A stretch of DNA of 54,118 nucleotides, counting the filler, from Jimgerdemannia flammicorona (taxonomy: Eukaryota): the NCBI GenBank assembly GCA_003990765.1. It is 3 parts of 3 records of this genome, joined end to end, with 100 filler letters (N's around TTAATTAATTAA, not from the genome) between each part and the next. Parts side by side here need not be neighbours in the genome. Positions count along the whole stretch, not along the records: positions 1 to 17,976 come from RBNJ01002344.1; 2 more parts are not named here. One strand, 5' to 3'. Below, in pieces: positions 1,029-30,824 of this stretch (within the stretch, counting starts at the first letter, position 1; every line of letters starts with the position of its first letter). The notes beneath the pieces are model-generated. The model worked only from the letters and a program-made list of their open reading frames with translations. It was not told where the DNA came from and searched no databases. Made by a program: the position numbers and the translations under genes.

Positions 1029-3548
1029 CTATCCGGTGCGTGAATTCGGCTTGTGCACCGACCGACTCCGTCGCAACTCCTCATTCCCAACCTCCCCCAC
1101 CTCTACCATCTCGCCCGCCGACGCACCAACCTCCTCGCTCACGCTCCCAATATCCAAGGCCATGCTCTCCGTCCGGGCCTCCTCGTTCACCGCCTCCTCC
1201 GCCAAGGGGGTATCCGAACCACGCCCCCACGACCCGGGCACATCAATAGATCCCCTCGTCGTCGCGGGTACATCAATAGATCCCCTCGTCACAGGTACAT
1301 CAATAGGTCCCCTCGTCGCGGGCACGACGATGGACGCGCGCGTCGACCTCAAAAACGGTCGCTCGTCAGTGATATCCTGCTCCGGAGGGGTACGCAGCAT
1401 CTGCGGTGGCTGGTAAAGGCCTGAAGTCGGTCTCCGGCGCGCAGGGACGCGGTAAGAGGGCTGCACGATAGTCGGCGAGTCTAAGCTGAACCTTCTCGGG
1501 AACTGGCCGGCGTCCTGGGAGGAGATTCTCATAGGGGACGAGAGTGGAATGGCGCTCCATGGCCGGACATTGGGCTGGCTCGGAAGCGGGCGTGGCAAGT
1601 CCGGGAAGTCAGGCTGAAAGAACCGGTTTCCGGGCCCGCTGTCGATCTCCGCGGTTTCGTATGATGATCTGCGGTGAGGCTCGTTGTAGCGATTCAAGTT
1701 CGGTTCGATGGTGGTGTGGACGTCGGACTGGCTATTGCGGTACCGGCGGTAGTAGATGAAGGCGGTGACGAGGGCGACGGTTAAGAGGACGGCGGAGCCG
1801 ACGGCGATTCCGATGACCACGCCTATGGAAACCATGTTGTCGTCGTTGCTGTTGCAGCTTCCTGCTGTTACGTTACAGGGCGAGACGAACGGATCGGGGA
1901 TGGGCACGCTTGATGGGAGGAGCCACGTCTTCGTGTACTCGAGGTGATTGGGCGTGTAGGTGGTGAGCCAGATGAAGGTTGTGGTATCAAGGGCGTAAAC
2001 ACCGTTGTCCAATGTAACATTCGTCGGTTTCCCTGTAAATATGATAACAAGTATTAAACTGTTATCTCCTTAAAATTAACCAGAAAAAATGAGAGGGAAT
2101 ACTCACCAAAGAATATAAAACATGTAGTCCCAACCATTACGGCCGAATGTCCCATTCGTGCCGAAGGGGCGGTTCCGTTGGATTGTGGAATAGACCATGC
2201 CGGGATGGCTGCGACCATGTCCAAGACACCAATGTCTGAAGATCGCGAAGGTGGATGCTCTAAATAGTGATGGCTGTGCTTAAAAACAAGACTCTTAGGA
2301 TAAGAAATTCCAAGCTTACCGCCCAACGTTGTCTGATTGCCATTGTTTCCGCCGTGAATGATAATTTTGTTATCGTGGGCTAAGAGAAATGAATATTGGT
2401 AAGCATCGAACAACAGCGATAGCAGTGTGACCAGCGATTTGTTTCGAGAGTTGCTATGAACATACATGAGGATGGGATCAAACTCACTTATGACCGAAAT
2501 GTGATCAAGTCGCGGAACCGGTAAACCATTTTGGAGTTGCGCAATCTGTCATCGTTATGAAAGGTACATATTTAGTGATGCATACCGACGAAGCCTGGAA
2601 TTAGAACATGAGCGTCGGTACCACCGAAAACAATCAGCTTACCAACAAAGTCCACGCGCCCGAGTTTGTATCAAACACAGGGACTTGTGACATTAGAAAT
2701 AATTCTCCCTTCGCCCCCTTCCCACCCAGTAGCACCATCCTCCCATCAGTCAAGATATTCGCCGAATGCCCGAAGCGCCCGCCTCCGGGCGCGACGCCTC
2801 CGACTGGACTCCACGCCAGCGATGGCGTCGTCAGGAGCCTCCATGTGGTGTTGAAGAGTTTGTTGGGCGTGGATGTGGTATTATGACCACCGAAGATCCA
2901 GATGGATCCGTCCTGCGTGCGCGAGACGGCGGTGTGGGAGTCGACGGGGTCGGGGTTCAGGCCCGAGATGTTGAGCTTGCCGCTGAAGGCAGTGGTGGTG
3001 GTGTTGAAAGACCAGAGGGTATTGCTGTCGGCGATGCTGTGGCTTTGGGCATAAACGCCGCCAAAGACATAGAAGAGAGAGTTGTTGTAGCCTCCGATAA
3101 AGGCCGTGTGGCCTGTTGGGGCGCGGGAGTTAGGCGGGAGTGCGACCAAGGATGGTATTGATATGAATGGATATCCATGCCATGGTACACCTACCACTTA
3201 GAGTTGGACTATTCAAGAAAGACCCACTTCCCGTACCCCACGGAGGACTTGTCAGGTTAAAGGGTTTGTCTACGGGTAGAATTAATAGATCGTTCGCGGC
3301 TGGCCCCAAAGTGCTTGTGATCCCGCCATGTATATATACTCTGAGGAGGGTGACGAGATACATGGTTAAACGCTTGGTCGTACGTATACTAAAGCAAGAG
3401 CTCGCCGAGAAAGCGCTTACGTGTTGACGACAAGGGCCGCAGCTGCTCCAGCTCGACCGAGAGCAGTATAACCCGTGGCAACTCTAGAAAGAAGACCAAG
3501 CACGAAGGAGGCGTGTAGCATGCAGTTGAGGCTAGTCGTCATCATCAT
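1029..3548 (-). CDS. Signal peptide + Kelch/galactose-oxidase-type beta-propeller + single TM + disordered cytoplasmic tail (7 exons)
   Basis: Manual splicing with GT-AG introns gives MMMTTSLNCMLHASFVLGLLSRVATG..., then Kelch blades (VYIHGG, GHTAF..FYVFGG, SHTAV..IWIFGG, RFGHSA..MVLLGG, RLDHISV..IIIHGG, ARMGHSAV..CFIFFG). TM segment IGVVIGIAVGSAVLLTVALVTAFIYYRRYR is followed by a Pro/Ser-rich tail. Stop at 1029. Confidence 0.85.
1236..1345 (-). repeat. In-frame 27-30 bp tandem repeats in the Kelch-protein tail (RGSIDVP(A)T x3-4)
   Basis: GG(G/T)ACATCAATAG(A/G)TCCCCTCGTC occurs three times plus a degenerate copy. Confidence 0.75.
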
Positions 3549-4932: not shown

Positions 4933-6252
4933 ATGTCCACAGCACAGTTCGAACCGGTAGACTTGCTCGAGGCCGCCAAACGGCTCCTCGCAGATTACGA
5001 GATCTGCCCGCGCAACAAGGAACTGATCGAAATACACAAGCGCTGCTTTGCAGGCCACGAGGACAAGCTCGAGCTGAACTACACATTCCTGAGCTGGCAA
5101 AATACCTTGTTTGGATCCCCTTCGAGCGGTTTATTAACGTCACCGTCCTCGGGATAGGAGGATTCGCTTGTGTGTATCGTGGCACCGTTCGGTGGCCCGC
5201 CGAGTCTTTCGTGTTTCTAGATAGAGTTGAAAAGTTGAACTATCGAATTATGAAGGAAACTGTTGAAAGGGATTTTGCAATGAAGGAATTCGACGAAACG
5301 ATGGTGAACGAGGTGGTTACCTGTTTTATTTCTCACTCCCTCCTCGTGGAGACGAAGGGTGAATTTATTCTTCGATGCTCATTTTACGATCTTTCAACAG
5401 CTCATCTTCGCCACTCACATCTCCAACCACCACAAAATCTGGCAAAATCCGACTATGGGGATTATCGGTCTTTCCTACCACCCTACGACCAACAAATACC
5501 TTATAGTTATACACCTCGCCAAATCCTCTCTCGAATCCAGCACCCTAACCAAAGGCTCCACCACCACCTGGGCCATGATATATCATATGGCCACAGAACT
5601 CACCGTCCGCCTGCAAATGCTTCACGACCTCGGCCTCGTTCACAAGGATCTCCACTCGGGCAACGTGGTCATCAACCATAACATTCCATACATGATTGAC
5701 ATCGGCCTCGCCGTCCCAATCAGCCACGCCAACTCCGCACCTGGTGACGGCATCTACGGCCGTCTCGAATACCTCCCCCCTGAGTCCTTGTGTGGCGAAC
5801 CGTATACCGCGGCGTCGGACGTATACTGCCTGGGTACACTGTTCTGGCAATTCGTGGTCGGCGTACCTCCGCGCGGAACCGCCGCCGAGCTAATGACGGA
5901 CGGAATGCGCGAAGAGATGGTTCCCGAGATGCCGGCGGAGTACGAGAATGTCATCCGTGCATGTTGGAATCCGGATCCGGTGAAAAGGCCGTCGGCCAAA
6001 GAGGTTGTGGAAATGCTGAGGACGAATGCAACGGCGATTCGGGAGCATTTGGTGAAGTCGAGTACGATCAAGTATATCAAGGCGAGAGAAAAGGAGTACA
6101 TGGCGAAGACAGAGTCGACTATATTTTTTGCTGAATCTCAGGTGTCGAGGAGCCAATTTCATGTGTACAAAGATCTCATGGAGTACAGCCGTCGGATCTC
6201 AGCGACGACCGACAATGGTAGGATTGGATATGACAAAAAGCGTTATCGGTAG
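4933..6252 (+). CDS. Tyrosine-kinase-like (TKL-type) protein kinase; apparent 1-nt frameshift near 5083 (pseudogene or assembly error)
   Basis: Motifs WIPFERF..LGIGGFACVY (Gly loop), FAMKEF, HKDLHSGN, DIGLA, GRLEYLPPE, SDVYCLG, CWNPDPVKRPSA. One intron runs from ~5314 (gag|gtggtt) to 5400 (tttcaacag). The ATG-4933 frame and the kinase frame differ with no intron between them. Confidence 0.8.
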
Positions 6253-9002: not shown

Positions 9003-9098
9003 GTGTGAGTGGGTGAATTTAGGAGCCGAGCGCAGTGTGAGTGGGTGAATTTAGGAGCCGAGCGCAGTGTGAGTGGGTGAATTTAGGAGCCGAGCGCA
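9003..9098. repeat. Three exact 32-bp tandem repeats in the divergent intergenic region
   Basis: GTGTGAGTGGGTGAATTTAGGAGCCGAGCGCA at 9003, 9035 and 9067, with no spacers. Confidence 0.95.
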
Positions 9099-9243
9099 GA
9101 GGTGAGCCGGAATCCGGCGATGACGACGTCGACCTTGGCGATGCCTGCGCCCCCAACCTAACCCCCACTCAGCCATGTCACTCAAACGATCCCTGCTAGT
9201 TACACTGCCTAGCTTTTGAGAAGACCTTACGCGTGAACCCACA

Positions 9244-11666
9244 ATGTCTGTCAGTGATGCCCAAGGTAATGAAATCAGCGGCCCCCGCCTCTCCCGCCGC
9301 CCCTCCATCGTCAGCATATTCAGCATACCTCCGTCATACGATCAAGTCACACGCGAGGGACCTCCGGATGACACGGCCGACGACCGCATCGTACTCGAGG
9401 AGAACGCGTTTGAGGTCCAGGGCCCGGAGCCTCCGCCTTACCTTATCCCCCAAGATTCATCACCGCCCAGACACGAGCTGGACGCACCGCCGCCGCCAAA
9501 TACCAACACCAGTAATGACTCGGCACCCCCATCACCACCACTCCCAGCATCATCAACCACTCTCTCCCTGCCTTCCGACACGGACCCGCCGACTTCCACG
9601 CCCTTCGACACGGACCCGCCAACCTCCACCCCCTCCGACCCCCTCCCCTTGCCTCCAATCCAAACCTCCCGCACAGACGCTCCTCCGGGCACGCTCAAAG
9701 TCATCTCCGTGAGCGGCCTCTCACAATATACGACAGGCGCCGCCTCGTCCTGCATCCCCTCCTGCATGGAAGCCTGCTTCCAGGTCCTGTATGGCTCGCC
9801 GCTCCGCCTCACCACTCTCGATAACATTCTCAAGGCCGGATCCCAGTACCGCGGCGCGAGCCACATAGAAGCTTCAGAGCTCCAGTCGACTCTGAAGCGC
9901 TACCGCGACACCATTGAGATGGTCGGCGAGCTCCACTACCCGATCGTTGCCCTCGGTACCCTCGTCTCAGACCTGTGCAACGAGGCTCGTAGGCAGAAGT
10001 GCCCCCTCGCAGCCATCATCACAAAGCCTCCAGAGTCCATCATGATCGCCGTACACCCGGATGCCGAACGACCTATCATTCTGTTCGATAGCCACCCAAG
10101 ACCACGACTGCATCCCGACGGCGCCGCGTTCGTTCGCTTCCCCGAATCTCCGGTACTCGTTACTTACCTGCGTCACCTATTCCCCCGACCGCAAGACCTG
10201 CATCTTAAAGACCTTGACGTATACACGGCGACGATCATGGGCAGCGTTTCCGTACTGGCATTTAAGGCTAGGAAAGGTGTAGAGGGAGTGCAGACGACGC
10301 TAGACGAGCGAGAGCTGATGGTACTCGAGATGCAGTACGACAGTTTCGCGCTGCAGCAGGAGAATCTGAGGCTGAGCGAGAAGATGGAAAGCATGAAGAA
10401 GGAGCACCAACGCGAGGTCACGGATTTTGAGGAGATCATTAGGACCATATCGGACGAGCTGATGGCCGTGAGGTTGCAGATGGAGGAGAGGGGCGGACGA
10501 CGGAGGGACGAGTCGTACAGCAACAATAATGGAAGGGGGGACGAGCAGCCTAGGTTGGGATTCAGGGACCGCGCGGTGCAGATGCTATGGGGAAAACCAC
10601 CCCCCGAATCCGGCCGATCAGCACAGTCGCCACGGCAGCAAGATTTTGCTTACTCTTCTATGGAGAGGGGATCAATGGCGGGATCGTCCGGCGAGCAAGA
10701 TTTTGCTTACTCTGCCATGGAGAAGGGATCGATGACGGGATCGTCCGGCGAGCAAGATTTTGCTCACCGGTCGCAACCGCCTTCCGTGATGGCGGGATCG
10801 TTCGCTGATCAAAATTTTGCTCACCGGCCGCAACCGTCTTCCGTGATGGCGGAATCGTCCGGCGAGCGACAGCAAGTTAATTCCCACAACGAGCAGCATC
10901 GCGGCCCCACACCTCTGCGCCACTCCCACGCCAATCGACCTGGCTGGGTATCCAGCTACCAAAGCGACTTCGAACTAGCACAACGACTCTCGCAAGAAGA
11001 CCTTGCCTTAGAGCAATTAAAGCGCGACCAAGCCGTGGCGATGCGGCTCCAGGAGGAATTCGCGCTTGAGGAATCTCGCTACCGCACCGACCGCTCCCAG
11101 GCCGAATCCATCTCCCAGAACATCCTCGAGTGTCCTATCTGCTCAGACAACTACCCGGTCGACGACACATTTCACTTAGACAGCTGCGAGCACTCCTTCT
11201 GCCGCTCCTGCGCAGCACGGTACATCCAGAATGCCGTGGAGTCGCGCACGTTCCCATGCCTATGCCCATGCTGCAAGGCCGCCGAGACCTCGTCGTCGTC
11301 CAGTGGAGCCCACGAGATCCCACAGCAAATGATCCTCTCCGTTCTGAGCGAACGAGAGCAAGTTGTCTGGTTGGAGATGGAGCGCGAGCGTGGCATCACA
11401 AGCGACAGTACGGTCAAGTTCGTCTATTGTCGGAACGGAAAGTGCGGGAAGCCTATCGAGGCCGGCGTCATGGGCGAGACGGAGGGTCTGGCCCATGTGT
11501 CGTGTCCGTATTGTAATCACGATTGGTGTGAGAAGTGTGGGCTTGATACGTGGCATAAGGGTGTCAACTGTGCCAAATACCAGCAGTGGAAGACCGACAA
11601 TGGGAAGGCAGACGAGTTGACAGATAAGATCGTGTTGGAGAAGGGGTATAAACGGTGTCCGGGCAC

Positions 11667-11722
<56 letters not shown>

Positions 11723-12018
11723 TTTTTTTTTGTTTTTTTTTTTTTTTTTTTTTTCACATCTGTCCTGTTCGGTATATGCTGACGGCATTTGTCCTTTTAT
11801 TTTTATTTTTTATTTTTTTGTAAACAGGTCCTAATTGCGGACAGATCATTGAGAAGACCATCGCTTGCAATCATATGAGATGCACCCAGTGCGGAACACA
11901 CTTTTGCTATCTCTGCGGTAAATTCATCACCAAGGCCAATGCGAAGGGGACCATTGATGCTGCCGTTGCCAGCCATTACAGAGGTTGTGCCTTGTTCGAC
12001 GTTCCGAACGAGCATTGA
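9244..12018 (+). CDS. RBR (RING1-IBR-RING2) E3 ubiquitin ligase with an N-terminal herpes-tegument-like (VTD) deubiquitinase domain; 869 aa, 2 exons
   Basis: RING1 CPIC..CEHSFCRSC..CPCC; IBR YCRNGKC..CPYCNHDWCEKC..WHKGVNC; RING2 KRCPGPNCGQIIEKTIACNHMRCTQCGTHFCYLC after removing intron 11663-11827. Upstream domain has SQY..SSC and FDSHPR. Confidence 0.88.
10639..10866 (+). repeat. 4 x 57-bp in-frame tandem repeat (19 aa: QDFA..S.MAGSSGE)
   Basis: Units start at 10639, 10696, 10753 and 10810. Confidence 0.9.
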
Positions 12019-18288: not shown

Positions 18289-20000
18289 TATAAGAGGGTT
18301 ACTTTTTAAGGTAACCATTATGTAGTTCTGGAAGGGTTTTCTGGAAGTTCTGGATATTTGGGAAGACTGTTTTCTTATGATCAAAATCAATTTCATATGG
18401 AGTATATCCTCTATGCTTATTAATTTCAAGATCAGATTGATGTCTCAACCAAAGTCCTTTTTCAGACTAGTTCTAGAGGATCAGGAGTTTCTATATTTCA
18501 GGAAGTTCAAGAAATTAAGACCAGCTTAGTTGAATTGGTATATTGCTACAGACAATATCCAATTAGGAAATTTTGTAATAGGGTTAGAAATAAGATCTAA
18601 TAGAGAGTAGATTTACTTAAGAGTGATTTGTGGGTTATTAAATAGGTTTATTCGCTATTCATAATATTGCTATACTAGGAGTAGTTATGTGAAGAGATAT
18701 TGTAGGGAAGTACTCAGGAGTTGTATTCAGATTGTTCAGGTATATTCGAGTCTGTTCTTGTCTGAGATTCTGAAGTCTGGGAGAGGGGGTATTTATACTA
18801 GTGAGAGGCTATCTGGGCTATACTAAATATGGATATAGTACTTAGTGCTTTGCTGAGCCAGAATGCAGTCATGTAGTATAAGTGTAATCTGACATATCAA
18901 GAGATTATCTAACTGCTGAGTCAGTTTATAGTCACATTGTATAAGACTAATCTAACTATACTATGACTGCTAAGCTATCTATAAATTTAGATGCTATCTG
19001 GGTAGTCTTCTATAGATTACAGCACTATGAGTCATGGGATTATAGTAAGCTGGCAGCTGTGGTTCATATTACTCATACTCAGGTGGTGGAGTAGTTAGTT
19101 TAATCTCAAGGGTTGTCTGAAGGTACAGGTTGTGTTCTTTGGTCTCTTCATTGTAGTTGAAGTAATTAGGGGTGAATGCAGATTGGTATTTGTACTAGTG
19201 GTCATTATCCCAATAAGTCTCATATGTATGTAGTTATGAACTGTTATAAGTTCATCGGCAAGGTTGGCAGTATAATCAGGGTTGGTAGAGATTCTTGGCT
19301 TGAGGTCATATTGGCATCAGAGGGATCATTGTCTTCTGCTTCATCTTTATCAAATCAGATTATATCATAGATATCCTTCATGGTATATCCAATTTGGAGC
19401 ATTTGCAGAATATGGTCATTAGGGTGCAGGAAGGTTCTGTCTATGGTCTAAATATATTTGAGGTACTTGTGGTTGAGTTCTTATATCATGTCATGGATTT
19501 GACTATAGGACAGGGTGGCAACCATTTCACTAGTAGTAACTCAGAGATAGAGAATAATGGTGCTATACTCATAAAAGAGTTCTCAGTGTTTGCAGGCAAT
19601 GAGTTTCTGGTATTGGGACATCTGAGTGATATCTGTATTATAGTAATGTTCAAGTATGTCTTCTAGGAGGTGGCCAATCTGGTAGTAGCTTGAGATTTGT
19701 CTGATTTGGTGGGCCTCACTAAGTATATTCAGGGCATTTCATCAGGCTTCCACAAAGTAGAGGGGTGCTAGATTATGGATATTTATGAGAGGCAGAGGGG
19801 GTGTGGCTCAGTTGACAATGGTATTCCAAATGTCAGCATAGATGCAGTTGTAAATCTCAGTGATCATGTTTATATGTTCAGAAGTTATAGTTATTGTTTG
19901 TTTTGGTTCTCTGTTTCAATACATCTCAGTACTTGGTATATATGTATTTGGTTCTGATTGGTAAGATTCTGTTTGTGTAAATCTTGTATTCCATGACTTC
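18289..20000 (-). mobile_element. Older partial LTR of Gypsy family A, interrupted at 20000 by a same-family LTR
   Basis: Colinear with 20001-21920 and 28594-30505, more diverged, and missing ~250 bp. It breaks mid-U3 at ...catgacttc|tgtagg. Confidence 0.8.
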
Positions 20001-22079
20001 TGTAGGAGGTTTGCTTTTTTGGATAACTGTTATGTAGTTCTGGAAGGGTTTTCTGGAAGTTCTAGATATTCTGGAAGACTGTTTTCTTATGGTCAAGATC
20101 AATTTCATATGGAGTACGTCCTCTATGCTTATTGATTTCAAGTTCAGGTTGATGTCTCAACCAAAGTCCTTTTTCAGACTAGTTCTGGATGTTCAAGATT
20201 TTTCGTATTTCAGGAAGTTCAAGAAACTAAGACCAGCTTAGTTGAATTGGTGTATCGCTGCAGACAATACCCAATTAGGAAATTTCATAATAGGGTTAGG
20301 AGTGGGACCTAACAGAGAGCAGATTTACTTAAGAGTGGTTTGTAGATTATTAAATAGGTTTATTCGTTATTCATGATATTGTTATACTAGGAGTTGATTG
20401 TGTGAAGGGATATTGTGGGGAAGTGCTCAGGAGTTGTGTTCAGATTGTTCAAGTGTTCAAGTCTGAGATTCTGAGATCTGGGGGAGGGGGTATTTATACT
20501 AGTGAGAGGCTATCTGAACTATGCTGAATATGGATGTAGCACTAAGTGCCTTGCTTTGTTGAGTCAGAATGCAGTCACATAGTACAAGTGTGATCTGACA
20601 TATCAAGAGATCATCTGACTGCTGAGTCAGTTCACAGTCACATCGTATAAGGCTAATCTAACTATACTATGACTGTTAGGCTATTTATAGGTTTAGGCAC
20701 TATCTGGGTAGTCCTCAATGACATCATCATCAATTGTATCATCTCTGATGAAGTAGTTGTCTAGGAAGAGTGGTTTGCGGATTACTTCTCCTTGTTTGCT
20801 GAGGTAATAATACATTGGAACTTTGTCTCCATCCCATAAGATGGCATCATCTGTCTCATACATATGCTAGATAAGGTGTTGGTGAATGAAGGAGTAGTAC
20901 ATTGTCTTTACTTTCATCAGTTTTGCTATCTGTATATCTTCTATAGGTTACAGCACTATGAGTCATGGAGTTGTAGTAAGCTAGTGGCTGTAGTTTATGT
21001 TGCTTGTACTCAGGTGGTGGAGTGGTTGGTTCAATCTCAAGAGTTGTCTGGAGGATAGATTGTGTTCTCCGGTCTCTTCATTATAGTTGAAGTAATCAGG
21101 AGTGAATGTGGGTTGATATTTGTGCCAGTGGTCATTGTCCCAATAAGTCTTATATATGGTTATGAACTATTGTAAGTTCATTGGCAAGGTTGGTAGTGTA
21201 ATTAGTATTGGCAGGGATCCTTGGCTTGGGGTCATATTGGTGTCAGAGGGATCATTGTCTTCTGCTTCATCTTCATCGAACTGGATTATATTGTAAATAT
21301 CCTTCATAGTATATCCGACTTGGGGCATTTACAAGATGTGGTCATCAGGGTGCGGGAAGGTTCTGTCTGTAGTTTCAATGTACTCGAGATACTTGTGGTT
21401 GATTTCTTATATCATGTCATCGATTTGGCCATAGGACAGGGTAGCAACCATTTCACTGGTAGTAACTCAGAGTCAGGGAATAAAGGTGCTGTACTCATAG
21501 AAGAGTTCTTGGTGTTTGTGAGTGATGAGCTTCTGGTGTTGGGATATCTGGGTAATGTCTGTATCATAGTGATGTTCAACCATATCTTCCAGGAGGTGGC
21601 TGATCTGGTAGTAGCTTGAGATTTGTCCAATCTGGTGAGCCTCATTAAGCATGTTCAGGGCATTCCATCGGGCTTCCATGAAGTAAAGAGGTGCTAGGCT
21701 ATGGATATTCATGAGGGGTAGAGAGGGTGTGGCTTAGTTGATAATGGTATTCCAAATGTCAGCATGGATTCGGTTGTAGATCTCAGTGGTCATGTTTGTA
21801 TATTGGAAGTTGTGGTTTGTTGTTTGTTTTGGTTCTCTGTTTTGACATGTCTCAGTACTTAGTATATGCATTTGGTCCTGATTGATAAGATTCCATTTAT
21901 GTGAATCTTATGTTCTGTAACTTCGTATTGACTCAGCTTTGTGTACTGTGACTTTGGTTTGACTCAGCTTCATAATCAAGCAGGTGGTTTGCAGATTTTT
22001 TTGGAGGTTGTGTGTGATTTCAGTGACTTGTTCAGAGGGTGACATGTGATTTCAGTGGCTTGGAGGTTGTGCACTTACA
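20001..22079 (-). repeat. Family A 3' LTR (2079 bp)
   Basis: TGTA...TACA termini. Adjacent PPT (rc AAGAAAGGGAGAGT) at 22080-22093. TATAAATA (rc) at 20491-20498. Homologous to 28594-30824. Confidence 0.9.
20693..21793 (-). pseudogene. Accessory ORF inside the LTR U3 (consensus ~365 aa, acidic C-terminal half)
   Basis: ATG at 21793 to TAA at 20693. Indels differ between LTR copies and cancel in the consensus, and in-frame stops are TGA/TAA/TAG one transition from Arg/Gln codons. Confidence 0.7.
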
Positions 22080-25000
22080 ACTCTCCCTTTCTTAGCTTTC
22101 GATGTCCTCATTGGGGCCTTCTAATTTTGTTCTAGTATTGTTATACTATTTGGGAGATCAAAAGTCTGGTGAAGTCCATTTTTCTCAGAAAGTGGCATGC
22201 TCATAGTACAGTTGCCTAATGCATTGGATTCACATGTTAAAGGGTCATATGTTCAATGCTGTGTGCTGGAAGTGATTCTGACATCATTTACTGCTGGAGA
22301 ATTTCCTTTACAGAATCTTCTTAAATGTCTATACCTCATTTCCCACCAGTGGTACAAGAAGAATAGGCTGGTTTTCAGTTTTACTATTTTTTCCAGAGGG
22401 TTGGTATTCTTGTCTTGTTTTGCTGAGTTTTTGATTCTTTTGATAATTATAGTGTTTGGGAGGATAATATATAGTATGTACAGATAGGTACAGAGTATTT
22501 GATTTTAGTTGTTCAAGGAATCATATTCCTGAACTAAGTCAGTAGTATTCTGGAGATTGGTCTTGGGTTCCCAGGTTGTATCATAGATTGGATAATCTTT
22601 CCATTTGACAAGGTACTTGGGGTGGCTCTTGTTGTCATGTTTGTTGAGGATTTGTTCAACTTTGTACTCTTCTTGGTCATTAATAATAATAGGTACAGGT
22701 GGTTTGGTGGTCTGGTTTGGAAATAGCTCATCATCATTTTCATTGTATTGCTTGAGACATTGGACATTGAAGACTGGGTGAATCTTAATGGTATCTGGTA
22801 GCACCAATTTGTAGGAGGTTGGAGAGACTTGTACAATGACTTCAAATGGTCCAATGAACTTGCTGTTCAGCTTTGTAGATGGTCTGTGCTTGAGGTTGTC
22901 AACTCAGTATCCTCTGATGTCTAGTAGAACTTTTTCTCCAATATCAAAGGTTTCTTCTCGATGTGTTGATTAATATACTGTGACTGTTATTCTTGAGCTT
23001 GTGATAAATTCTCGATGGCAATCTGGCTTACATTACATATTCAGAGCAGGAATTCTTCAACAGCTTCGACTGTAGAGAGTTCTTCAGTAGCTCAGATGAG
23101 TGTCAAAGGGGTGTTTGGGTTTTGTCTAGTGTTGGTGAAGAATGGGGTCATTCTGAGAGAGGCTTGCTTGCTATTGTTATAGGCAACTTGACTACAGTGA
23201 GGTGTTCATGCCAGTCATCTTGTCTGTAGGAAATATAGTTCCTTAGTATTTATTCCAGAGTTCAGTTCATTCTTTTAGTTTGGCCATCAGTTTCTGAGTG
23301 AAAGGCTGTGGATAGTGCAAGTTTTGTTCCAAGGTATGTATGAAGGGCTTTCCAAAAATAGCTGGTAAATTTTGGGTCTCAATTGCTAACAATGATCTTA
23401 GGAAGACCATAATAGTGGAAGATGTTGTCAAATAAGAGTGTGGCTATGTCTGGTGCTGTTACAGTAGTAGTAGTAGGCACAAAGTGGGCTTGTTTGCTGA
23501 GGTAATCCACAAAGACAACAATTGCATCTTTCCCGTTCTTAGTTCAGGATAGTTGTACAATGAAGTCCATAGAGATTTGTTCCCAATTTGCAGATGGTAC
23601 TGGAATAGGGTGAAGTAAGCTGGGTTTTGCTAGTGTTGAGGACTTGTTTCGTTGGCAGGCATCACAGGAAGTAATGTAGGTTTTAAGCTGATCTGCCATG
23701 TGGGACCAATAGAAGTTTCAGGAGATAACTTTATAGCATTTGTCGAATCCTAAATGTCTAGCTTTAGGTGCATCATGACATTTGAATAGGATAGTCCTTC
23801 AGAGGTCTTGGTTGTTTGGGACATACAGTCTGTCCTTGTAGTAGATAGTGTTGTCCTTCAGTTGGTATTGGTAATACTGTGTATGCTTGTCGGCATTATC
23901 ACTGTTCAGGATTTCTCACAGTACTTGAGCTTCCTTATCATCAGCACATGCTGCAATAATTTGCTCTATGATAGTGTTAGTAACCAAGGTGAGAGTTTGG
24001 ATAACTTCTTCAATGGGTGGTCTGGAGATTGCATTGGCAACAATATTTTCCTTACCAGGGTGGTACTAGATTTCTTAGTCAAAGTTGGTGAGAACTTTCA
24101 TCCATCTAGCTTGCTTTCAAGAAAGGGTAGCCTGTGTCTTGATATTGACTAATGATTTGTAGTCAGTCAGTACAGTGAAGTGTACTCCTTCTAGGTAGGG
24201 TCACCATTTGATCAGAGTATCTACGATGGCTAGCATTTCCTTCTTGTGAATTGTATAGTTAATTTCAGCATTATTGAACTTGCAAGAGTGATAGGTCACA
24301 GGGTGTCCTTCCTGTATGAGTACTGCTCCAAGAGCTAGGTCAGAGGTATCAGTAGTAACTTCATATGATAGGGCAGGATTTGCTGCTTGAAGTACTGGAG
24401 TGGTTATCAGGACATCTTTCAGTGCTTGAAAGGCAGTATCTTGCTTGGGTCCCTAAGTTACAAGATTGTTGAAGTCTTTCTCTTGTTTTATGGTCCAGAG
24501 TTGTTCTTGTTTCTTACTGTGCTTGGTCATTTGGGTGAGAGTGGTAGCGATTTTAGCAAAGTTGGCAACAAATCACCTGTAATAGTTTGCTAATCCCAGG
24601 AATGACTGGAGGTCTTTCAGCTTCTTGGGTCTGGGCCAATCTTTGATTGCAGAGATTTTGCTGGAGTCTATTTGGAGTGACAATGTGTTCAAGGAATTGA
24701 ATTTCTTTCAGAAGAAATTCGCACTTACTGAGTTTTGCAAAGAGTCAGTTTTCTCAGAGTTTCAGTAGTACTAGTTCAAGGTGTTCGAGATGTTCTTCCA
24801 GGGTTTTGCTGAAGACTAGGATGTCATCAATATAGACAACAATGAATTTGTCCAGGTATGGATGCAGAATGGTATTCATCAGTGTCTGGAAGGTTGCTGG
24901 AGCATTAGTTAAGCCAAAGGGTATAATCAGGAACTCGAAGTGTCCATAGCAAGTTCAGAAGGCTATTTTGTAGATGTCTTCTTCTTTCATGGTGATTTGC

Positions 25001-28000
25001 CAGTAACCATTTCACAGGTCAAAGGAGCTCATGAATTGTGGGTTGGTAAGTCTATCAAATATTTCATTGATTCTTGGTAGTGGGCAACAGTTCTTGATGG
25101 TCTGTTCATTGAGATCACAGTAGTCAATGTACATTCACAAGTTTCCTCCTTTCTTGACAACAAATAGGACTGGTGCACCATAAGGTAATATGCTGGGTCT
25201 GATGAATCCTTGTTCTAGGAGTTCATCAATTTCTTTCTTGAGTGCATCGATTTCTCTTGGAGACATGTGGTAGATTGACTTGAAGGCTGGTTTGGCATCT
25301 GGGATAGTCTTGATGGCATGGTCTACTGCTTATTTAGGAGGTAGGCCTTTCGGGAGCTTCTTTGGGAATATGTCTCGAAATTTCTGAAGTAGTGGTCTGA
25401 CATGGCTGTCAACTTTGGAAAAATCTTCTTCAGAGTTCTTGGGTTCTCCTTTGGATGGACGGATGGAGATGGCGAAGAGAGGGTATTTCTTGGCCAATTT
25501 CTTAAGTTGTAGCTTGTTGATGTGGGTGATCTTTGGTCCAGGGTCACTAGAATTAAGTGGGTCCTTTTTGCCTTATAGTTTGAAGTTGTGGCATCCTTTC
25601 TTGATGGTCAGAGAATGGTTTACCCAATTGATCATAGGGTTCTCTTGTTTTTACCATAGAGTCTCAAGGATGATTTCATTATCAGGAAGTGGTACAAATT
25701 GGAGAGTAACATGTACTTGGTAGTCTCCAATTCAGAAGGGTAGGTTGTGGACTTCCTTGTTAATAACATGTGAGGTTCCATCAGCTGTGGTGACTACTTA
25801 AGTTTGTTGTACTGGAGAGGTGAAGACCTTAAGTCTATTGGCTGTCTCTTCATTGATGAAGTTGCCTGAGGCACCACTGTCTATCATAATCTTGACAGGT
25901 ACTTAGTTGACAAAAGCTTTAAGTATAAGCAGTTTGTCTGATCCAATGGTGGTGATTTCAGTTATAGGAGCTTTCCTTCTGTTGGTTCTTCTTTGTGCCA
26001 GTTCATTGAAATAAGAGAAACAATCATCAATCATTCGGGAAGAGTACATTCCAATGCCATGAGGGCATCAGCTACTTAGTACATATCCATCTTCAATCTT
26101 CTTGTAGAATTGTTCTTCTTTGCTCATGGTAGGTTGGGCTAGGGCCTTGTTTGATGAGCCAAATCCTTTGGATCCTCAGATGGTAGGTAGTAGTTCAGGG
26201 ACTTCCTTGACTATCAGGGTTGACTCAATTTTTTTGAATAGAATCTAGACAATGCAGAAACCTATAGAGATCTTGAAGGGTGTCTAACTGTGGTTTCGAA
26301 TGAGGATAATGATTTCGCCTGTGTAATCTTCGTCGATAACTCCTCCTTCTACTGAGAGTCCTTTCAATACTAGGCTGCTGCGACAGCATATTCTTCCAAC
26401 ATGTCCTTCAGGGATTTGGATGCTGATTTCTTTGTAGACTTGTTTGACTTCTCAGTTGGAAACTGTAGCTTCTTCAGCTGCATATAGGTCATATCCAGCT
26501 GCTTTTTGACTTCCTTTGGTTGGGGCCTTAGCAGTTTGTCTTAACTTGACAAAGTCTAATGTTCTGGTGGTCAGGTTATTGAGGTGGTGCAGAGTGGTAA
26601 CAGTTGCTCATGTTGCTGTTTGGGGTTTTCGGTTAGGGCAGGCACTGGCCATGTATCCTGTCTTTTGGCAATAGAAGCATACTCCACTTCTTCAAAGTTC
26701 ATTCCTTTTGCCTTCAGTGAGTTTTTTGAAGGTGCTTGGCTGAGTGGGTTCATAATTTCTAGGTATCCAAGAGGTGGATGTGGAGGGAGCTTGGGATGCT
26801 TCATGCTTGGGTTCTTCTTTCTTGGTCCAAGTCTTTTCCTTATTGTTGAATTGTCTTTGGGGCAGAATTGGTCCAGCTGTTAGGATTCACTTGACCATAG
26901 TCTTGATTCTTGCCAGGCATCATTATTGGTGATCACAACCAACTGGGTGGCCTTGTTCTTGGATTTTTCTAGTAAGCCATTCAGGTAGTGTATCGAATAA
27001 ATGGTCTGCTCTTGTACCATTTCATGCTTTGTCATTGGCAATGTATCCTAGGCCAACAGTGTTCAGGAGTGACTTGAGTTTGTACAGAAGGTTTCAAATT
27101 CTTCTTTACCATATATGTATATCGAATTTGAGGTTGCAGAGTTTTACTCGGGATTTAGCAATTATGGTTTTGCTGCAGTATTGAGCAATCATAAGTTGTT
27201 TGAGTCCAGGGGCTGCAGGATGGGCTCCATATCCTGGGGCATTGTTTGCTGTATTCTGAGCAACTACTGCAGATCGGGTATCCCATGTGAGGTGTTTTTC
27301 AGGAAGGGTTCACCACCATTCTTCGGCAGGTCCTTGGAAGAATGTAACAACTCGGCAGACATAGGCTATAGTGGTAGCAAAGAGTTGTTCCAGAGTGTGG
27401 TCTTGATTATTTGTCAGAACATGGTCAGCAACTCGCTCATTGGTTCATTGATTGGCTTTGAAGTTGGTGTCAACTACACTAATGAAGCTTTGGACTTCTT
27501 ATGCCATACCATTAAAGGTAGGTAGGCTCAGATTTTTGGTAGGTCGGGTCTGTTCAGCTAAGGCAGTAATGGTTGCTGCCATTATAGCTACTTGGGCTAT
27601 AAGGTCTAGAATCTGTTGGTTTGCCATGTTGTTTACTGGAGGTGGTTGGACTGCTGGCAGTAGTTTTACTGATACTACTTGAGATACTGGTGCAGAGTGT
27701 GATGGGGTTCTTTGGGTCTGTATAAGTTGCTAGAGTAGTAGTTGTAGATCTGGAGTAAGGGCTTGATAGATAGCTATTTGTTACTGTATAGGTATATTCT
27801 GTCCTGATGGAAGTGCATCTCCTTTGGTGGTGTATGTATCTGGGATTGAATTTACTAAGATACTCCTCCTCTTCTTCAGTTTGGTCCCCATGTAATTAGG
27901 TTTTCTCGGTGTCAAAGTAGATAGAATCAGTTGTATATCTGATTTCAGATGGACTTAATTCAAAGTTAAGTTCAGGTTTGGTATTGGTTTCAGATTCAGA

Positions 28001-28593
28001 TAGGGCTGTAGCAGGGCCTTCTTCAGGTTCAGGGTCAGGTAGTTGATGAAGGGTTTCTCTTGCTTCTTCTTTAAGAATATGGCAGATCTTGCTATTCTGG
28101 AATCGATAGTATAACATGGTCTTGGTCCTGGTACAGTGAAAGTCAGTAGAGTTGAGCCACTTGGCTACAGAGGCCTGGGCTTCATGAGGAACTATGGCTA
28201 GAAAGACTGCTGCTGGTTGTCCTAGATCACTCGGATTTGTGGAGCTGACAAAACTCTTGTTGAGAAGAGTAAAGAAGGCTTCAATAAGACCTTCTTCATC
28301 TTGACTTGCTGGGTATAGTACAAGGAGTTTGGTGAATAGGGTTTTGCCTATTTGCTGATTTAGTTGGAGTACTTCTTTTTTTGAGTGAAGTTTGTCCCAC
28401 TTGTTATAGGTGTAGAGGTCAAATTGTCCTTATACATTAGGTTCAATTCTCTCCAGATTGTTAGATGGTTCAGGATAAATTCCAGTTCAGGGGTTGGGCT
28501 TTATACCAACTTGTAGGAATTCTCAGAAGGGTTTATAGTGGGGTGAGAAAGCATCTTGAAGCGGAATTGGATTGTAAACCACTGCTACCAAGT
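22080..28593 (-). mobile_element. Gypsy family A internal region, copy 1 (chromovirus-type; gag-ZnK-dUTPase-PR-RT-RH-IN-chromodomain), pseudogenised
   Basis: Zn knuckle CFYCQKTGYMASAC (~26640-26685); dUTPase AAGYDLY..RSSL..GGVIDEDYTG..GSKGFGSS (26155-26560); protease IDSGASGNF (~25860-25890); RT VYIDDI (~24825); integrase GPFE; chromodomain EEYKVEQIL..YLVKWKDY..TWEP (22505-22680). Confidence 0.92.
28579..28590 (-). promoter_or_regulatory. Primer-binding site of family A, initiator tRNA-Met-like
   Basis: rc TGGTAGCAGTGG lies 3 nt inside the LTR boundary; TGGTAGCAG matches the iMet tRNA 3' complement. Confidence 0.7.
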
Positions 28594-30824
28594 TGTAGGA
28601 GGTTTGCTTTTTTAGGTAACCATTACGTAGTTCTGGAAGGGTTTTCTGGAAGTTCTAGATATTCTGGAAGACTGTTTTCTTATGGTCAAGATCAATTTCA
28701 TATGGAGTATGTCCTCTATGCTTATTGATTTCAAGTTTGGGTTGACATCTCAACCAAAGTCCTTTTTCGGACTAGTTCTGGATGTTCAGGATTTTCCATA
28801 TTTCAGGAAGTTCAAGAAACTAAGACCAGCTTAGTTGAATTGGCATATCGCTGTAGACGATACCCAATTAAGAAATTTCATAATGGGGTTAGGAGTGGGA
28901 CCTAACGGGGAGCGGATTAACTTAAGAGTGGTTTGTGGGTTATTAAATAGATTTATTCATTATTCATGATATTGTTATACTAGGAGTTGGTTGTGTGAAG
29001 GGATATTATGGAAAAGTACTTAGGAGTTGTGTTCAGATTGTTCAAGTGTTCAAGTCTGAGATTCTGAGATCTGGGGAAGGGGGTATTTATACTAGTGAGG
29101 GGCTATCTGGACTATACTGAATATGGATATAGCACTAAGTGCCTTACTGAGTTGGAATACAGTCACATAGTACAAGTGTGATCTGATATATCAAGAGATT
29201 GTCTGACTGCTGAGTCAGTTCACAGTCACGTTGTACAAGGCTAATCTAACTATACTATGACTGTTAGGCTATTTATAGGTTTAGGCACTGTCTGGATAGT
29301 CCTCAATGACATTACTATTAATTGCATCATCTCTGATGAAGTAATCATCTAGGAAGAGTGGTTCGCAGATTACTTCTCCTTATTTGCTGAGGTAATAATA
29401 CATTGGAACTTCGTCTCTATCTCACAAGATGGTATCATCTGTCTCATATGCTGGATAAGATGTTGGTGGATAAAGGAGCAGTACATTGTCTTCACTTTTA
29501 TTGGTTTCGCTATCCACATATCTTCTATAGATTACAGCACTATGAGTCATGGAGTTGTAGTAAGCTGACAGCTGTGGTTTATGTTGCTCGTACTCAGGTG
29601 GTGGAGTGGTTGGTTCAATCTCAAGAGTTGTCTGGAGGTACAGGTTATGTTCTCCAGTCTCTTCATTATAGTTGAAGTAATCAGGAGTGAATACGGGTTA
29701 GTATTCATGCCAGTGGTCATTGTCCCAATAGTCTCGTATGTGGTTATGAACTGTTGTAAGTTTATCGGCAAGATTGGTGGTATAATTAGTATTGGTAGGG
29801 ATCCTTGGCTTGGGGTCATATTAGTGTCAGAGGGATCATTGTCTTCTGCTTCATCTTCATCGAACTGGATTATATCATAAATATCCTTCATAGTATATCT
29901 AACTTGGGTATTTACAAGATGTGGTTATTGGGGTATGGGAAGGTTCTGTCTGTAGTTTCAACGTACTCGAGATACTTGTGGTTGATTTCTTATATCATGT
30001 CATCGATTTGGCTGTAGGACAGGGTAGCAACCATTTCACTAGTAGTAACTCAGAGTCAGGAAATAAAGGTGCTATACTCATAGAAGAGTTCTCAGTATTT
30101 GCAGGTGATGAGCTTCTGGTGTTGGGACATCTGGGTAATGTCTGTATCATGGTGATGTTCAACCATATCTTCCAGGAGACAGCCAATCTGATAGTAGCTT
30201 GAGATTTGTCCAATCTGGTGGGCCTTGTTAAGCATGTTTAGGGCATTCCATCGGGCTTCCACGAAGTAAAGGGATGCTAGGCTATGGATATTCATCAGGG
30301 GTAAAGGGGGTGTGGCTCAGTTGACAATGGCATTCCAAATGTCAGCACAGATTCAGTTATAGATCTTGGTGGTCATGTTTGTGTATTGGAAGTTGTAGTT
30401 TGTTATTTGTTTTGGTTCTCTGTTTTGACGCATCTCGGTGCTTGGTATATATGTATTTGGTCCTGATTGGTAAGATTCTGTTTATGTGAATCTTGTATTC
30501 TGTGACTTTGTATTGACTCAGCTTTGTGCACTGTGACTTCAGTTTGACTCAGCTTCATGATCAAGTAGGTGGTTTCCAGATTTGTTCAGAGGTCATGTGT
30601 GATTTCAGTAGCTTGTTCAGAGGGTGATATGTGATTTTGGTGGCTTGGAGGTTGTGTGCTTATAACTTCATATTGACTCAGCTTTGTATGCTGTGACTTT
30701 AGTTTAACTCAGCTTTATGATCAAGCAGATAATTTCTAGATTTATTTAGCTATCACATGTGATTTCGGTGGCTTGTTCAGAGAGTGACATGTGATTTCTG
30801 TGGCTTGGAGATTATGTGCTTACA
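28594..30824 (-). repeat. Family A shared central LTR (2231 bp): 5' LTR of copy 1 and 3' LTR of copy 2
   Basis: PBS on its left, PPT (rc AAGAAGGAGAGAGT) on its right. Contains the U3 ORF at 29281-30376 and a ~155-bp duplication near 30510-30820. Confidence 0.9.

Follow-up and report, generated by a model that had tools for sequence, protein, structure and literature searches.

We identified in the soil fungus Jimgerdemannia flammicorona (GCA_003990765.1) a locus that is, in all likelihood, one spliced and transcribed Endogonales gene, encoding a bifunctional ubiquitin enzyme of 869 residues that belongs to the known VTD-RBR type. The window is the whole stretch of 54,118 nucleotides analysed here. 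To our knowledge, VTD-RBR proteins stand alone in nature in joining a K6-type deubiquitinase to an RBR ligase. The preliminary description of this DNA had anticipated that similar fusions may exist in other fungi, and these are indeed in print: according to Erven 2022 (PMC9741609), VTD-RBR proteins are found in most Agaricomycetes, and the fungal VTDs tested are K6-specific. The fusion itself is thus not new, being published for mushroom-forming fungi (PMC9741609) and not for Endogonales. What is new is the host, Jimgerdemannia (Mucoromycota), the presence of a family of paralogs, a subclade carrying PY motifs, and the absence of the catalytic Rcat exon from the public gene models.

Gene structure and transcripts

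The protein is encoded by two exons (Table 1). The gene had been placed at 9691..12018; its end is right (the TGA stop closes at 12018), and its start is not, as the ORF begins at 9244, the first ATG after an in-frame stop, and 9691 is codon 150 of the same ORF. Translated exon 1 is identical at 798 of 800 positions to a public Jimgerdemannia flammicorona model. Contigs from runs X1 and X2, whose kind we presume to be RNA (a guess), and from a soil metatranscriptome (X3) skip the intron, passing from 11659 to 11827 with 2 letters between. The metatranscriptome runs X4-X7 had small shares, and of these X4 contributed pieces to the contig comparison. We adopted a GC-AG intron because the 11659-11827 join is canonical-like and in frame with the GC-AG cut only (...CCG G/GT CCT..., read as CPG/PNC, the slash marking the junction). 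GT-AG splice variants were rejected, since between 11659 and 11828 the spliced contigs have room for 3 letters only.

The C-termini of the public Endogonales models that we inspected (P0003, P0004, P0007 and P0010) stop at, or read through, the poly-T GC-AG intron. These models lack the catalytic Rcat exon, and the Endogonales ligases therefore look incomplete in databases; the annotation is corrected here.

The neighbouring genes are ordinary (a Kelch gene and a kinase gene), and degenerate retroelements are abundant downstream in the window. A Helitron context was considered and rejected, as no RepHel-like or Helitron ORF was found among 18 ORFs scanned.

Table 1. Features of the VTD-RBR gene and its predicted product, in window coordinates.
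Feature	Residues	Position	Strand	Remarks
CDS exon 1	1-806 + first base of Gly807	9244..11662	+	X1 and X2 contigs span the exon
PPSY, PY motif 1	29-32	9328..9339	+	shuffle test
PPPY, PY motif 2	63-66	9430..9441	+	shuffle test
VTD-type cysteine protease (deubiquitinase) domain, predicted	152-343	9697..10272	+	
Q161...C170 (SQY...SSC motif), predicted catalytic Cys and conserved Gln	161-170	9724..9753	+	aligned to TQY...SACT of Wc-VTD1
D282-S-H284, Asp-x-His catalytic motif	282-284	10087..10095	+	aligned to FDPH of Wc-VTD1
Probable coiled coil	349-416	10288..10491	+	crude heptad count, weak
Third MIU-like motif, DELMAVRLQME	404-414	10453..10485	+	within coiled-coil segment
Linker with 57-nt (19-aa) tandem repeats, type GSSGEQDFA[YH]...		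10633..10867	+	
MIU-like helix 1, DFELAQRLSQE	575-585	10966..10998	+	
MIU-like helix 2, DQAVAMRLQEE	595-605	11026..11058	+	about 25 aa upstream of RING1
RING1	629-678	11128..11277	+	Pfam RING models E 5.8e-5 to 7e-3, all below curated cut-offs
IBR	720-776	11401..11571	+	Pfam IBR 30.7 bits (cut-off 24.3)
Intron, 165 nt		11663..11827	+	GC donor, AG acceptor; ~85-nt poly-T at 11670-11754
CDS exon 2	807-869 + TGA stop	11828..12018	+	most of Rcat and the C-terminal tail
Predicted catalytic Cys820 of Rcat (ACNHMRC)	820	11866..11868	+	aligned with GCNHMTC of Agaricomycete orthologs
C-terminal tail motif HYRGCALF	856-863	11974..11997	+	common to Agaricomycete VTD-RBRs (HY..C.LF)

The protease and ligase modules

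Judging from alignments and a fold model, residues 152-343 form a cysteine protease domain of the VTD type with an intact predicted Cys170/Asp282-x-His284 centre, in which Asp-x-His follows the Cys on its C-terminal side as an inverted triad. A VTD-like deubiquitinase had been proposed from Q161, C170 and D282-S-H284; these residues lie exactly where they had been named (SQYTTGAASSC, aa 160-170; ILFDSHPR, aa 279-286), and fold, profile match and conservation all support the reading. The AlphaFold model of the domain (aa 152-343) has a pLDDT of 92.7, and its papain-like fold matches solved VTD and M48 structures, with an identity of only ~16-18% in the structural alignment with Wc-VTD1. Moreover, a profile of 35 relatives run against PDB sequences retrieved 8adb (Wc-VTD1) at E 1.3e-13 and 8add at E 1.7e-3; in this family-profile match, the centre was aligned with SACT and FD-x-H of Wc-VTD1, and the P383/F384 loop of Wc-VTD1 appeared as an insertion relative to the profile.

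Q161, C170, D282, H284 and R286 are invariant across the 35 aligned sequences and near-invariant among 147 relatives (upon re-alignment, Q161 80/80, C170 82/84, D282 147/148 and H284 148/148). From the M48 literature, we take Gln161 to be the oxyanion-hole residue. The words Gln, glutamine and oxyanion have 0 occurrences in the text of Erven 2022 (PMC9741609), which calls the Asp-x-His motif 'invariable' in VTDs, assigns Asp440/His442 of Wc-VTD1 to the catalytic triad and describes the His as being in a non-productive pose in the Wc-VTD1 and M48 crystals. Inactive VTD copies are known in insects (Erven 2022, PMC9741609), and the domain could, like these iVTDs, be a catalytically dead ubiquitin-binding module, with the RBR alone active; however, this is very unlikely, since every catalytic residue is present, and conservation extends to all paralogs and to nearly all 147 relatives.

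A viral library search returned herpes large tegument proteins, and PF04843 (Herpes_teg_N) is carried by 17% and 73% of the members of the nearest ESM-Atlas clusters. The window protein has no PF04843 score at E <= 1 in Pfam, and the model apparently does not reach this subfamily. The herpesviral deubiquitinases (M48, 2J7Q; UL36 and BPLF1; PF04843 / peptidase C76) also differ in sitting at the N-terminus of very large proteins bound to the capsid, with no E3 fusion; their preference is for K48, and they act on Ub-AMC (PMC9741609). Wc-VTD1 (Waddlia chondrophila, PDB 8ADB/8ADC) differs in being a bacterial, K6-specific enzyme, and an RBR is not part of its described architecture.

K6 chains are the preferred or specific substrates of Wc-VTD1, Nf-VTD, Si-VTD and Sl-VTD (PMC9741609) and of SnVTD (PMC10643670). 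An extra C-terminal alpha9 helix, little conserved in sequence, contacts the Ile36 patch in the K6 subgroup (PMC9741609); in our model a helix at aa 326-332 is followed by a strand, and the profile alignment extends through the Wc-VTD1 stretch with Y472/F483. A K6 preference of the Jimgerdemannia enzyme would be an extrapolation from distant relatives, at the above identity to Wc-VTD1 and 27% to a Pleurotus ortholog. The preliminary description had counted a lack of probe reactivity as a refutation of its reading, which is invalid, because Si-VTD, Sl-VTD, Nf-VTD and SnVTD do not react with Ub-PA and all cleave K6 di-ubiquitin (PMC9741609, PMC10643670).

The protease might instead target another ubiquitin-like modifier (e.g. 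NEDD8, a target of BPLF1 as well) or some non-ubiquitin protein, in the manner of the structurally related proteases YopT/AvrPphB. This we find improbable: ubiquitin is cleaved by every VTD characterised in the account of Erven 2022 (PMC9741609), the D-x-H order is that of VTDs as opposed to the Cys-His-Asp order of YopT, and VTD domains of the family occur joined to RBR, UBA, RanBP-ZnF and U-box modules. Among the 147 relatives, the fusion partners were RING/IBR (39/147), UBA-like (13/147), RanBP zinc finger (2/147) and U-box with FYVE (1/147).

In its C-terminal part, the protein has RING1, IBR and Rcat in RBR order, with Cys820 as the predicted catalytic residue. RING1 shows a C-x2-C...C-x-H-x2-C-x2-C (C3HC4) pattern from residue 630, and the RBR of RNF31 was aligned at E 7.5e-5 over residues 9-167 of our 188-residue RBR query (about aa 628-786). 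Rcat begins at C805 (11656), spans the intron and ends near 11922; the exon 2 piece (11830-12018) scored 29.2 bits with IBR and 27.9 bits with IBR_1, both above the Pfam cut-offs. In RBR ligases, the Rcat Cys of the C-x-H-M type is the active Cys. An intact RBR had been described, and its parts are indeed all present, ACNH included, but it is complete only once the 165-nt intron is removed, since ACNHMRC sits in exon 2.

Accessory motifs and proposed mechanism

The MIU consensus, reportedly set out by Penengo in 2006, is a single helix with an acidic-x-x-hydrophobic-A-x-x-L-Q-x-x-acidic core. Both MIU-like helices of the preliminary description were recovered, and we found a third copy at aa 404-414; the pattern D..[LVIMF]A..L[QS].[ED] had 3 matches against 0.0014 expected per shuffle, and none of 20,000 shuffles reached 3. 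The motif recurs in 11 of the 41 RBR-type relatives examined, and that of helix 2 is also found upstream of RING1 in paralogs and in Pleurotus, Jaapia and Hohenbuehelia orthologs. The segments had no match to Pfam UIM at E <= 10, and the MIU, coiled-coil and N-terminal pieces had no Pfam match above noise. These helices are non-random, and their ubiquitin binding is putative.

The helical segment that follows the VTD domain is probably a coiled coil, as had been suggested, and this is the weakest item. In a crude heptad count, Gly/Pro-free 35-aa windows with >= 60% L/I/V/M at a/d occurred only in aa 349-416, but a single-register shuffle test gave a P of only about 0.1. Relatives have sub-threshold coiled-coil-type Pfam matches after the VTD domain.

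The two PPxY motifs, PPSY and PPPY, are present as described, and non-random: the only two Tyr of aa 1-150 both lie within them (shuffling P about 0.002). Aa 1-150 contain 23% Pro (35/150) and no Pfam domain. The N-terminus is a predicted disordered, Pro-rich segment in which the PPxY would be accessible to NEDD4/Rsp5 WW domains. Among the sequences examined, such motifs are limited to the window protein, to P0003, which is its copy in another strain, and to the paralogs P0004 and P0007, the latter two carrying two each. None was found in the Endogonales paralogs P0005, P0006, P0008 and P0010, nor in 12 named Agaricomycete orthologs, save one LPAY in Clavulina. The PY motifs are, by this distribution in sequences, a lineage-specific add-on of one paralog subclade, outside the core machine.

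From subfamily membership, the VTD domain would be an isopeptidase preferring K6-linked ubiquitin chains and poor on mono-ubiquitin substrates. The RBR would accept ubiquitin from an E2 onto Cys820 and pass it to substrates or to itself, and the deubiquitinase in the same chain could trim or erase the chains that the ligase builds, either for self-protection from auto-ubiquitination or for linkage editing. The MIU-like helices may keep ubiquitin or chains close to the RBR. For the subclade with PY motifs, these may provide a link to a HECT ligase of the Rsp5/NEDD4 type, the protein acting as its substrate, adaptor or partner.

A20 unites deubiquitinase and ligase activity within one molecule. 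The preliminary description went further, proposing an A20-like editor that removes and writes chains and could recruit a HECT ligase. In its specific form, one chain type would be removed and another written, and the PPxY motifs would bring in a HECT ligase of the Rsp5/NEDD4 kind, adding a third activity. Against recruitment, PY motifs are more commonly found in substrates or adaptors of Rsp5; they are also absent from four paralogs and, but for one LPAY, from the 12 Agaricomycete orthologs, so that HECT recruitment cannot be the core VTD-RBR function. Moreover, the A20 domains themselves are absent, with no OTU or zf-A20 Pfam match. On the other hand, a deubiquitinase and an E3 do reside here within one chain, the two PPxY are kept in P0004 and P0007, and the Rsp5-Rup1-Ubp2 complex is a precedent for a deubiquitinase held on Rsp5 (PMC3777918). 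All together, we regard the A20-like editor as rather unlikely. A20/TNFAIP3 and Rsp5-Rup1-Ubp2 (PMC3777918) share with the window protein the logic of combining deubiquitinase and ligase within a single molecule or complex; the likeness is a functional analogy only, because the domains are unrelated (OTU and A20 zinc fingers; USP and HECT).

Paralogs, relatives and origin of the family

The Endogonales protein has the module order of the Agaricomycete VTD-RBR proteins (Serendipita indica PIIN_06337, i.e. Si-VTD; Serpula lacrymans Sl-VTD): a VTD domain, a helical linker with MIU-like D..hA..LQ.E, and RING1-IBR-Rcat. The HY..C.LF tail of Rcat and all catalytic residues are also in common. The differences are the host (Endogonales, of the Mucoromycota, whereas the published hosts are Agaricomycetes), a long Pro-rich N-terminus with two PPxY, missing from the named Agaricomycete orthologs, a VTD identity of only about 27% to the Pleurotus ortholog, and the start of Rcat, CPG-PN-C here and CPGC in the Agaricomycete orthologs. 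Furthermore, 'a single protein' per genome was described for the latter (PMC9741609), whereas at least four diverged paralogs carry the locus-tag prefix BC938 of one assembly, as counted from public protein matches. Endogonales relatives were found under three locus-tag prefixes, several of them being paralogs that have diverged to 38-51% identity over their full length, and a homolog was found in Endogone sp.

In a tree of VTD domains, the Endogonales (6 rows) and an Agaricomycete-type clade (17 rows) share a split (UFBoot 98 / SH-aLRT 89). The Agaricomycete-type clade is itself supported at 100/98, its named members including Cantharellales and Auriculariales; the Endogonales sit outside it and are therefore not nested in crown Agaricomycetes. 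Rcat and the tail are 41-54% identical to the C-termini of Agaricomycete VTD-RBRs, all the way to the last residues; for most protist or unnamed RBRs the match is confined to about 30 residues. In raw similarity, the VTD domain stands nearer to a protist protein, that of Anaeramoeba (32%, E 3e-30), than to that of Pleurotus (27%, E 3e-15), so that it is the tree and the RBR tail that carry the fungal grouping. When searched by word index, the RBR region retrieved Endogonales paralogs only, and a longer search with the 35-sequence family alignment added one eukprot protein; neither result bears on other fungi. Metagenome scans for DNA of relatives, with the single protein and with the Endogonales alignment, gave pattern matches and no relative. 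The tree, the C-terminal identity and the shared MIU-like motifs before RING1 support the view that the Endogonales gene is of the same type as the Agaricomycete VTD-RBR gene, apparently homologous over both modules.

Erven 2022 stresses a patchy VTD distribution, transposon spread and transfer, and dates the fungal acquisition to about 185 million years, in the Mesozoic, on the Agaricomycete stem (PMC9741609). This date is questioned by the VTD tree together with the RBR tail. Still, it is possible, though less likely than not, that the Endogonales gene is not an old fungal gene and was acquired horizontally, the donor being an Agaricomycete, a protist or a mobile element, or that it is a contaminant of assemblies from field-collected sporocarps. 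The patchy distribution and transfers described by Erven 2022 (PMC9741609) speak for such an origin, together with the higher raw VTD similarity to Anaeramoeba, the degenerate retroelements downstream in the window and the absence of other Mucoromycota among the 30 + 4 relatives whose names were checked. However, the Endogonales clade falls outside the 100/98 Agaricomycete-type clade, the three Endogonales prefixes hold diverged paralogs, and the gene is interrupted by a spliceosomal intron and sits among ordinary neighbours, with neither a RepHel nor a Helitron ORF in the scan.

We raise as a possibility, with limited confidence, that VTD-RBR was not acquired on the Agaricomycete stem in the Mesozoic but was a gene older than the separation of Mucoromycota and Dikarya that was lost repeatedly, or else moved between lineages by transfer, that it expanded in the Endogonales, and that the PY-bearing branch was wired to Rsp5. 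If true, this branch would form a three-enzyme ubiquitin module, with a K6-type eraser, an RBR writer and a HECT partner, and the published dating of the fungal acquisition would be challenged. With an expanded family in another fungal lineage, one very distant from the first, core features can be better told from add-ons by comparison: the VTD domain, the MIU-like helices, the RBR and its tail are candidates for the core, and the PY motifs and repeats may be add-ons.

Gene structure and transcription

The gene had been placed at 9691..12018 in a preliminary description, with an intact RBR (RING1-IBR-Rcat ubiquitin ligase) carrying an ACNH motif. Position 9691 proved to be codon 150 of a longer plus-strand ORF, in which position 9244 begins the first ATG to follow an in-frame stop. 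The RBR is intact once a 165-nt intron is removed, and not as an uninterrupted frame: after ...EKGYKRCPG the exon 1 ORF enters a poly-T tract, and a second frame (11830-12018) translates to PNCGQIIEKTIACNHMRCTQCGTHFCYLCG...SHYRGCALFDVPNEH, ending at a stop codon. Assembled contigs of three public sequencing runs (X1 and X2, RNA only by guess, and X3, a soil metatranscriptome) each match to 11659 and restart at 11827, with two letters between. One canonical-like cut fits these contigs, with exon 1 ending at 11662 and exon 2 starting at 11828. The splice junction, CCG G/GT CCT, reads Pro-Gly-Pro and keeps the frame, yielding a mature product of 807 + 62 = 869 aa. Because the contigs from all three runs bridge the intron, the gene is transcribed and spliced, as judged from assembled contigs and not raw reads.

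Jimgerdemannia flammicorona belongs to the Endogonales (Mucoromycota), and a partial public model from this species is identical to the window protein at 798/800 residues. Four C-terminal ends of public models were inspected, those of P0003 (a strain copy) and of the Endogonales proteins P0004, P0007 and P0010. All end or read through at the intron following CPG, and therefore lack the Rcat exon; the P0005 and P0008 models, also from Endogonales, diverge before it. In BLAST, the Rcat exon matched none of the Endogonales public models. The corrected gene model is new.

A perfect 32-nt tandem repeat in three copies (GTGTGAGTGGGTGAATTTAGGAGCCGAGCGCA) lies at window 9003-9099, with the start codon following after ~145 nt. 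Its copy number may differ between strains, since the match of the long X2 contig ends at 9067 and is followed by other letters.

Downstream of the gene the window becomes AT-rich and strand-skewed. Two direct copies of ~8.7 kb each, ~8.6-8.75 kb apart and 85-93% identical, occupy window 18289-36040, with a shorter, partial third copy at 18.3-19.7 kb. No ORF of at least 210 aa was found in the direct copies. GC skew is strongly positive, at 0.18-0.28 across 18-36 kb and as high as 0.52 immediately upstream, at 16-18 kb; AT skew is negative. The direct copies are probably a decayed repeat element. Among the 18 window ORFs scanned, none was of Helitron type.

Features of the VTD-RBR gene, its product and its surroundings
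Feature	Position	Strand	Remarks
Kelch-repeat protein gene	~2054-3197	-	upstream neighbour
Protein kinase gene	~5308-6252	+	upstream neighbour
19-aa tandem repeats (57-nt units)	10633-10867		acidic-aromatic, GSSGEQDFA[YH]...; linker from coiled coil to MIU-like helices
Intron	11663-11827	+	165 nt, GC-AG, GCACGT...AAACAG
Poly-T tract	11670-11754		~85 nt, inside the GC-AG intron
Broken retroelement ORFs	41469-43493; 51384-52190	-; +	dUTPase + reverse transcriptase, RNase H, gag-aspartyl-protease-like piece
RING1	aa 629-678		Pfam RING matches under curated cut-offs; C3HC4 pattern present
IBR	aa 720-776		Pfam score over cut-off
Rcat	intron-split		exon 2 scores IBR and IBR_1, both over cut-offs

The protease and ligase modules

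Pfam gave no match in the VTD (viral tegument-like deubiquitinase) region of the window protein. With aa 143-350 as query, HMMER run in full against 1.84 billion representatives recovered 147 relatives at E <= 1e-3, 29 of them at E <= 1e-10. Conservation among the re-aligned relatives was high at Q161 (80/80), C170 (82/84), D282 (147/148), H284 (148/148) and R286 (145/148), and all five residues were invariant in a 35-sequence MAFFT alignment. Apart from the catalytic residues, H207 (95/109), TKPPE at aa 260-264 (P263 and E264 143/148 each) and R286 are nearly invariant within the VTD subfamily.

Searched against PDB sequences, the 35-sequence profile matched Wc-VTD1 (8ADB/8ADC, E 1.3e-13) and the zebrafish Helitron VTD (8ADD, E 1.7e-3), entries identified from the data statement of Erven 2022 (PMC9741609); TQY, SACT and FDPH of Wc-VTD1 aligned with SQY, SSC and FDSH. 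The AlphaFold2 model of the domain was confident (pLDDT 92.7, pTM 0.90). Foldseek, which the preliminary description had proposed as one check on a VTD-like fold, bore that fold out, with 8ADC, 8ADB, 2J7Q (M48) and 8ADD as top ranks. The model also matched herpesviral large tegument proteins in a viral structure library (BFVD), and PF04843 was present in the ESM-Atlas clusters closest to the domain. According to the text of Erven 2022, the family is marked by an Asp-x-His motif that does not vary and a mirror-image triad, and the His of this motif sits non-productive even in crystals (PMC9741609). Fold, profile and active site therefore place aa 152-343 in the VTD family.

Four small giant-virus orfan proteins also match the model in BFVD (E 1.9e-5 to 1e-3, TM 0.53-0.59): Tupanvirus A0A6N1NWC7, Catovirus A0A1V0SAW3, Yasminevirus A0A5K0U9Y5 and Indivirus A0A1V0SCX7. 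The available portions of Erven 2022 (PMC9741609) do not name giant viruses among VTD hosts.

The closest solved RBRs were RNF31/HOIP (E 7.5e-5) and RBCK1/HOIL-1 (E 1.6e-3), and Cys820, in ACNHMRC, aligned to GCNHMTC of orthologs. The VTD active site and the RBR are both intact and lie in one polypeptide.

Every motif named in the preliminary description was found at its residue. The first 150 residues are Pro-rich and contain just two tyrosines, both within the PPxY pair (shuffle P ~0.002). Three copies of the MIU-like pattern D..hA..L[QS].[ED] are present (aa 404, 575 and 595), against 0.0014 expected per shuffle. MIU-like motifs precede RING1 in 11/41 RBR-type relatives examined, recurring in paralogs, Pleurotus, Jaapia (four copies) and Hohenbuehelia. 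The coiled coil was the weakest claim: a crude heptad count does point to aa 349-416, but with a shuffle P of only ~0.1. The linker repeats were not evident in the paralog P0004. Two PY motifs each are carried by the window protein, P0004 and P0007, and none by P0005, P0006, P0008 and P0010 or, except for one LPAY in Clavulina, by the named Agaricomycete orthologs.

Relatives and kinship

Similar fusions had been suspected in other fungi, and they are indeed published for Agaricomycetes. In the text of Erven 2022 (PMC9741609), most Agaricomycete genomes have one protein with VTD fused to RBR, Dacrymycetes have the RBR without VTD, and the acquisition is dated to ~185 million years ago. Searches on VTD, RBR and deubiquitinase returned only Erven 2022 and a bacterial-effector review of 2026, and those on Jimgerdemannia and ubiquitin nothing relevant. 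The available main text of Erven 2022 (PMC9741609) does not contain 'Mucoromyc'; its three text supplements do not mention Jimgerdemannia, Endogone, Mucoromyc, RBR or Rhizophagus, and picture-only tree figures would escape such a search. The window protein is the first fungal VTD-RBR outside Agaricomycetes that we can document. Moreover, whereas Erven 2022 gives one VTD-RBR per genome for most Agaricomycetes, Jimgerdemannia has four diverged paralogs on one locus-tag prefix, BC938 (P0004, P0005 and P0006, with 58-65% VTD identity, and P0010, covered only in part).

Names were obtained for 30 relatives, and four more from a separate protein search. The Endogonales comprise five Jimgerdemannia models (prefix BC938 for four, BC936 for the fifth) and one from Endogone sp.; the Agaricomycetes Phlebia, Pleurotus, Obba, Sanghuangporus, Rickenella, Clavulina, Ceratobasidium, Auriculariales, Jaapia and Hohenbuehelia; and the protists Anaeramoeba, Paulinella (CCCH + VTD + RBR), a marine-transcriptome (MMETSP) protist and the dinoflagellate Effrenium (VTD with U-box and FYVE). 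An N-terminal UBA-like domain precedes the VTD in 13/147 relatives, and two proteins have RanBP-type zinc fingers; this UBA group and P0016, P0082, P0117 and P0144 are subfamily members with other architectures.

A careful, unrooted IQ-TREE analysis covered 79 VTD domains over 164 columns (82 rows with at least 140 filled columns, minus the long-branch P0042, P0090 and P0112); a quick tree agreed with it. One split (UFBoot 98, SH-aLRT 89) separates Endogonales, Agaricomycete-type proteins and four unnamed metagenome proteins from the other 52 rows, with an Endogonales clade of 6 rows (98/88) and an Agaricomycete-type clade of 17 (100/98). The exon-2 product, 62 aa long, shares 41-54% identity with Agaricomycete VTD-RBR C-termini up to their ends, including I...A...HY..C.LF; only ~30 residues match in most protist or unnamed RBRs, Paulinella (34% over 62 alignment columns) being the exception. 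This RBR evidence on kinship to Agaricomycetes is independent of the VTD tree. Against a simple sister relation, the VTD is in raw similarity nearer that of Anaeramoeba (32%, 3e-30) than that of Pleurotus (27%, 3e-15), the Agaricomycete clade has a long stem (0.69), and the tree is unrooted. Because VTD-RBR fusions also lie across the split from the fungal clades (P0009, P0016, P0019, P0021, P0024, P0027, P0062 and P0126), the fusion may be older than the fungal groups, or may have arisen more than once.

Proposed working of the protein

In RBRs an E2 hands ubiquitin to the catalytic Cys, which binds it as a thioester, and Cys820 would take up ubiquitin in this way. That the window protein is a VTD-RBR we consider very probable. 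By its subfamily membership, the VTD would cleave K6-linked chains and require a proximal ubiquitin, and mono-ubiquitin probes would fail for that reason; a K6 preference is, by a small margin, what we expect. Si-VTD and Sl-VTD of Agaricomycetes are strictly K6-specific, show no Ub-PA reaction and barely cleave Ub-AMC (Erven 2022, PMC9741609), and Simkania VTD behaves likewise (PMC10643670). RBRs such as Parkin assemble K6 chains and are controlled by these, according to Erven 2022 (PMC9741609).

Architecture and known DUB-E3 pairs suggest that the deubiquitinase may strip chains that the ligase attaches to substrates or to itself; that this serves mainly for self-editing or self-protection is a tentative proposal, somewhat short of an even chance. 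The MIU-like helices adjoining RING1 may bind ubiquitin or chains, and the PY motifs may connect Rsp5 with the PY-bearing paralog branch; Rsp5-Rup1-Ubp2 is a described precedent for a DUB that binds Rsp5 (PMC3777918, in part). All together, the gene is a real, expressed VTD-RBR of a kind already known; this member, its taxon, the family expansion and the PY motifs are new.
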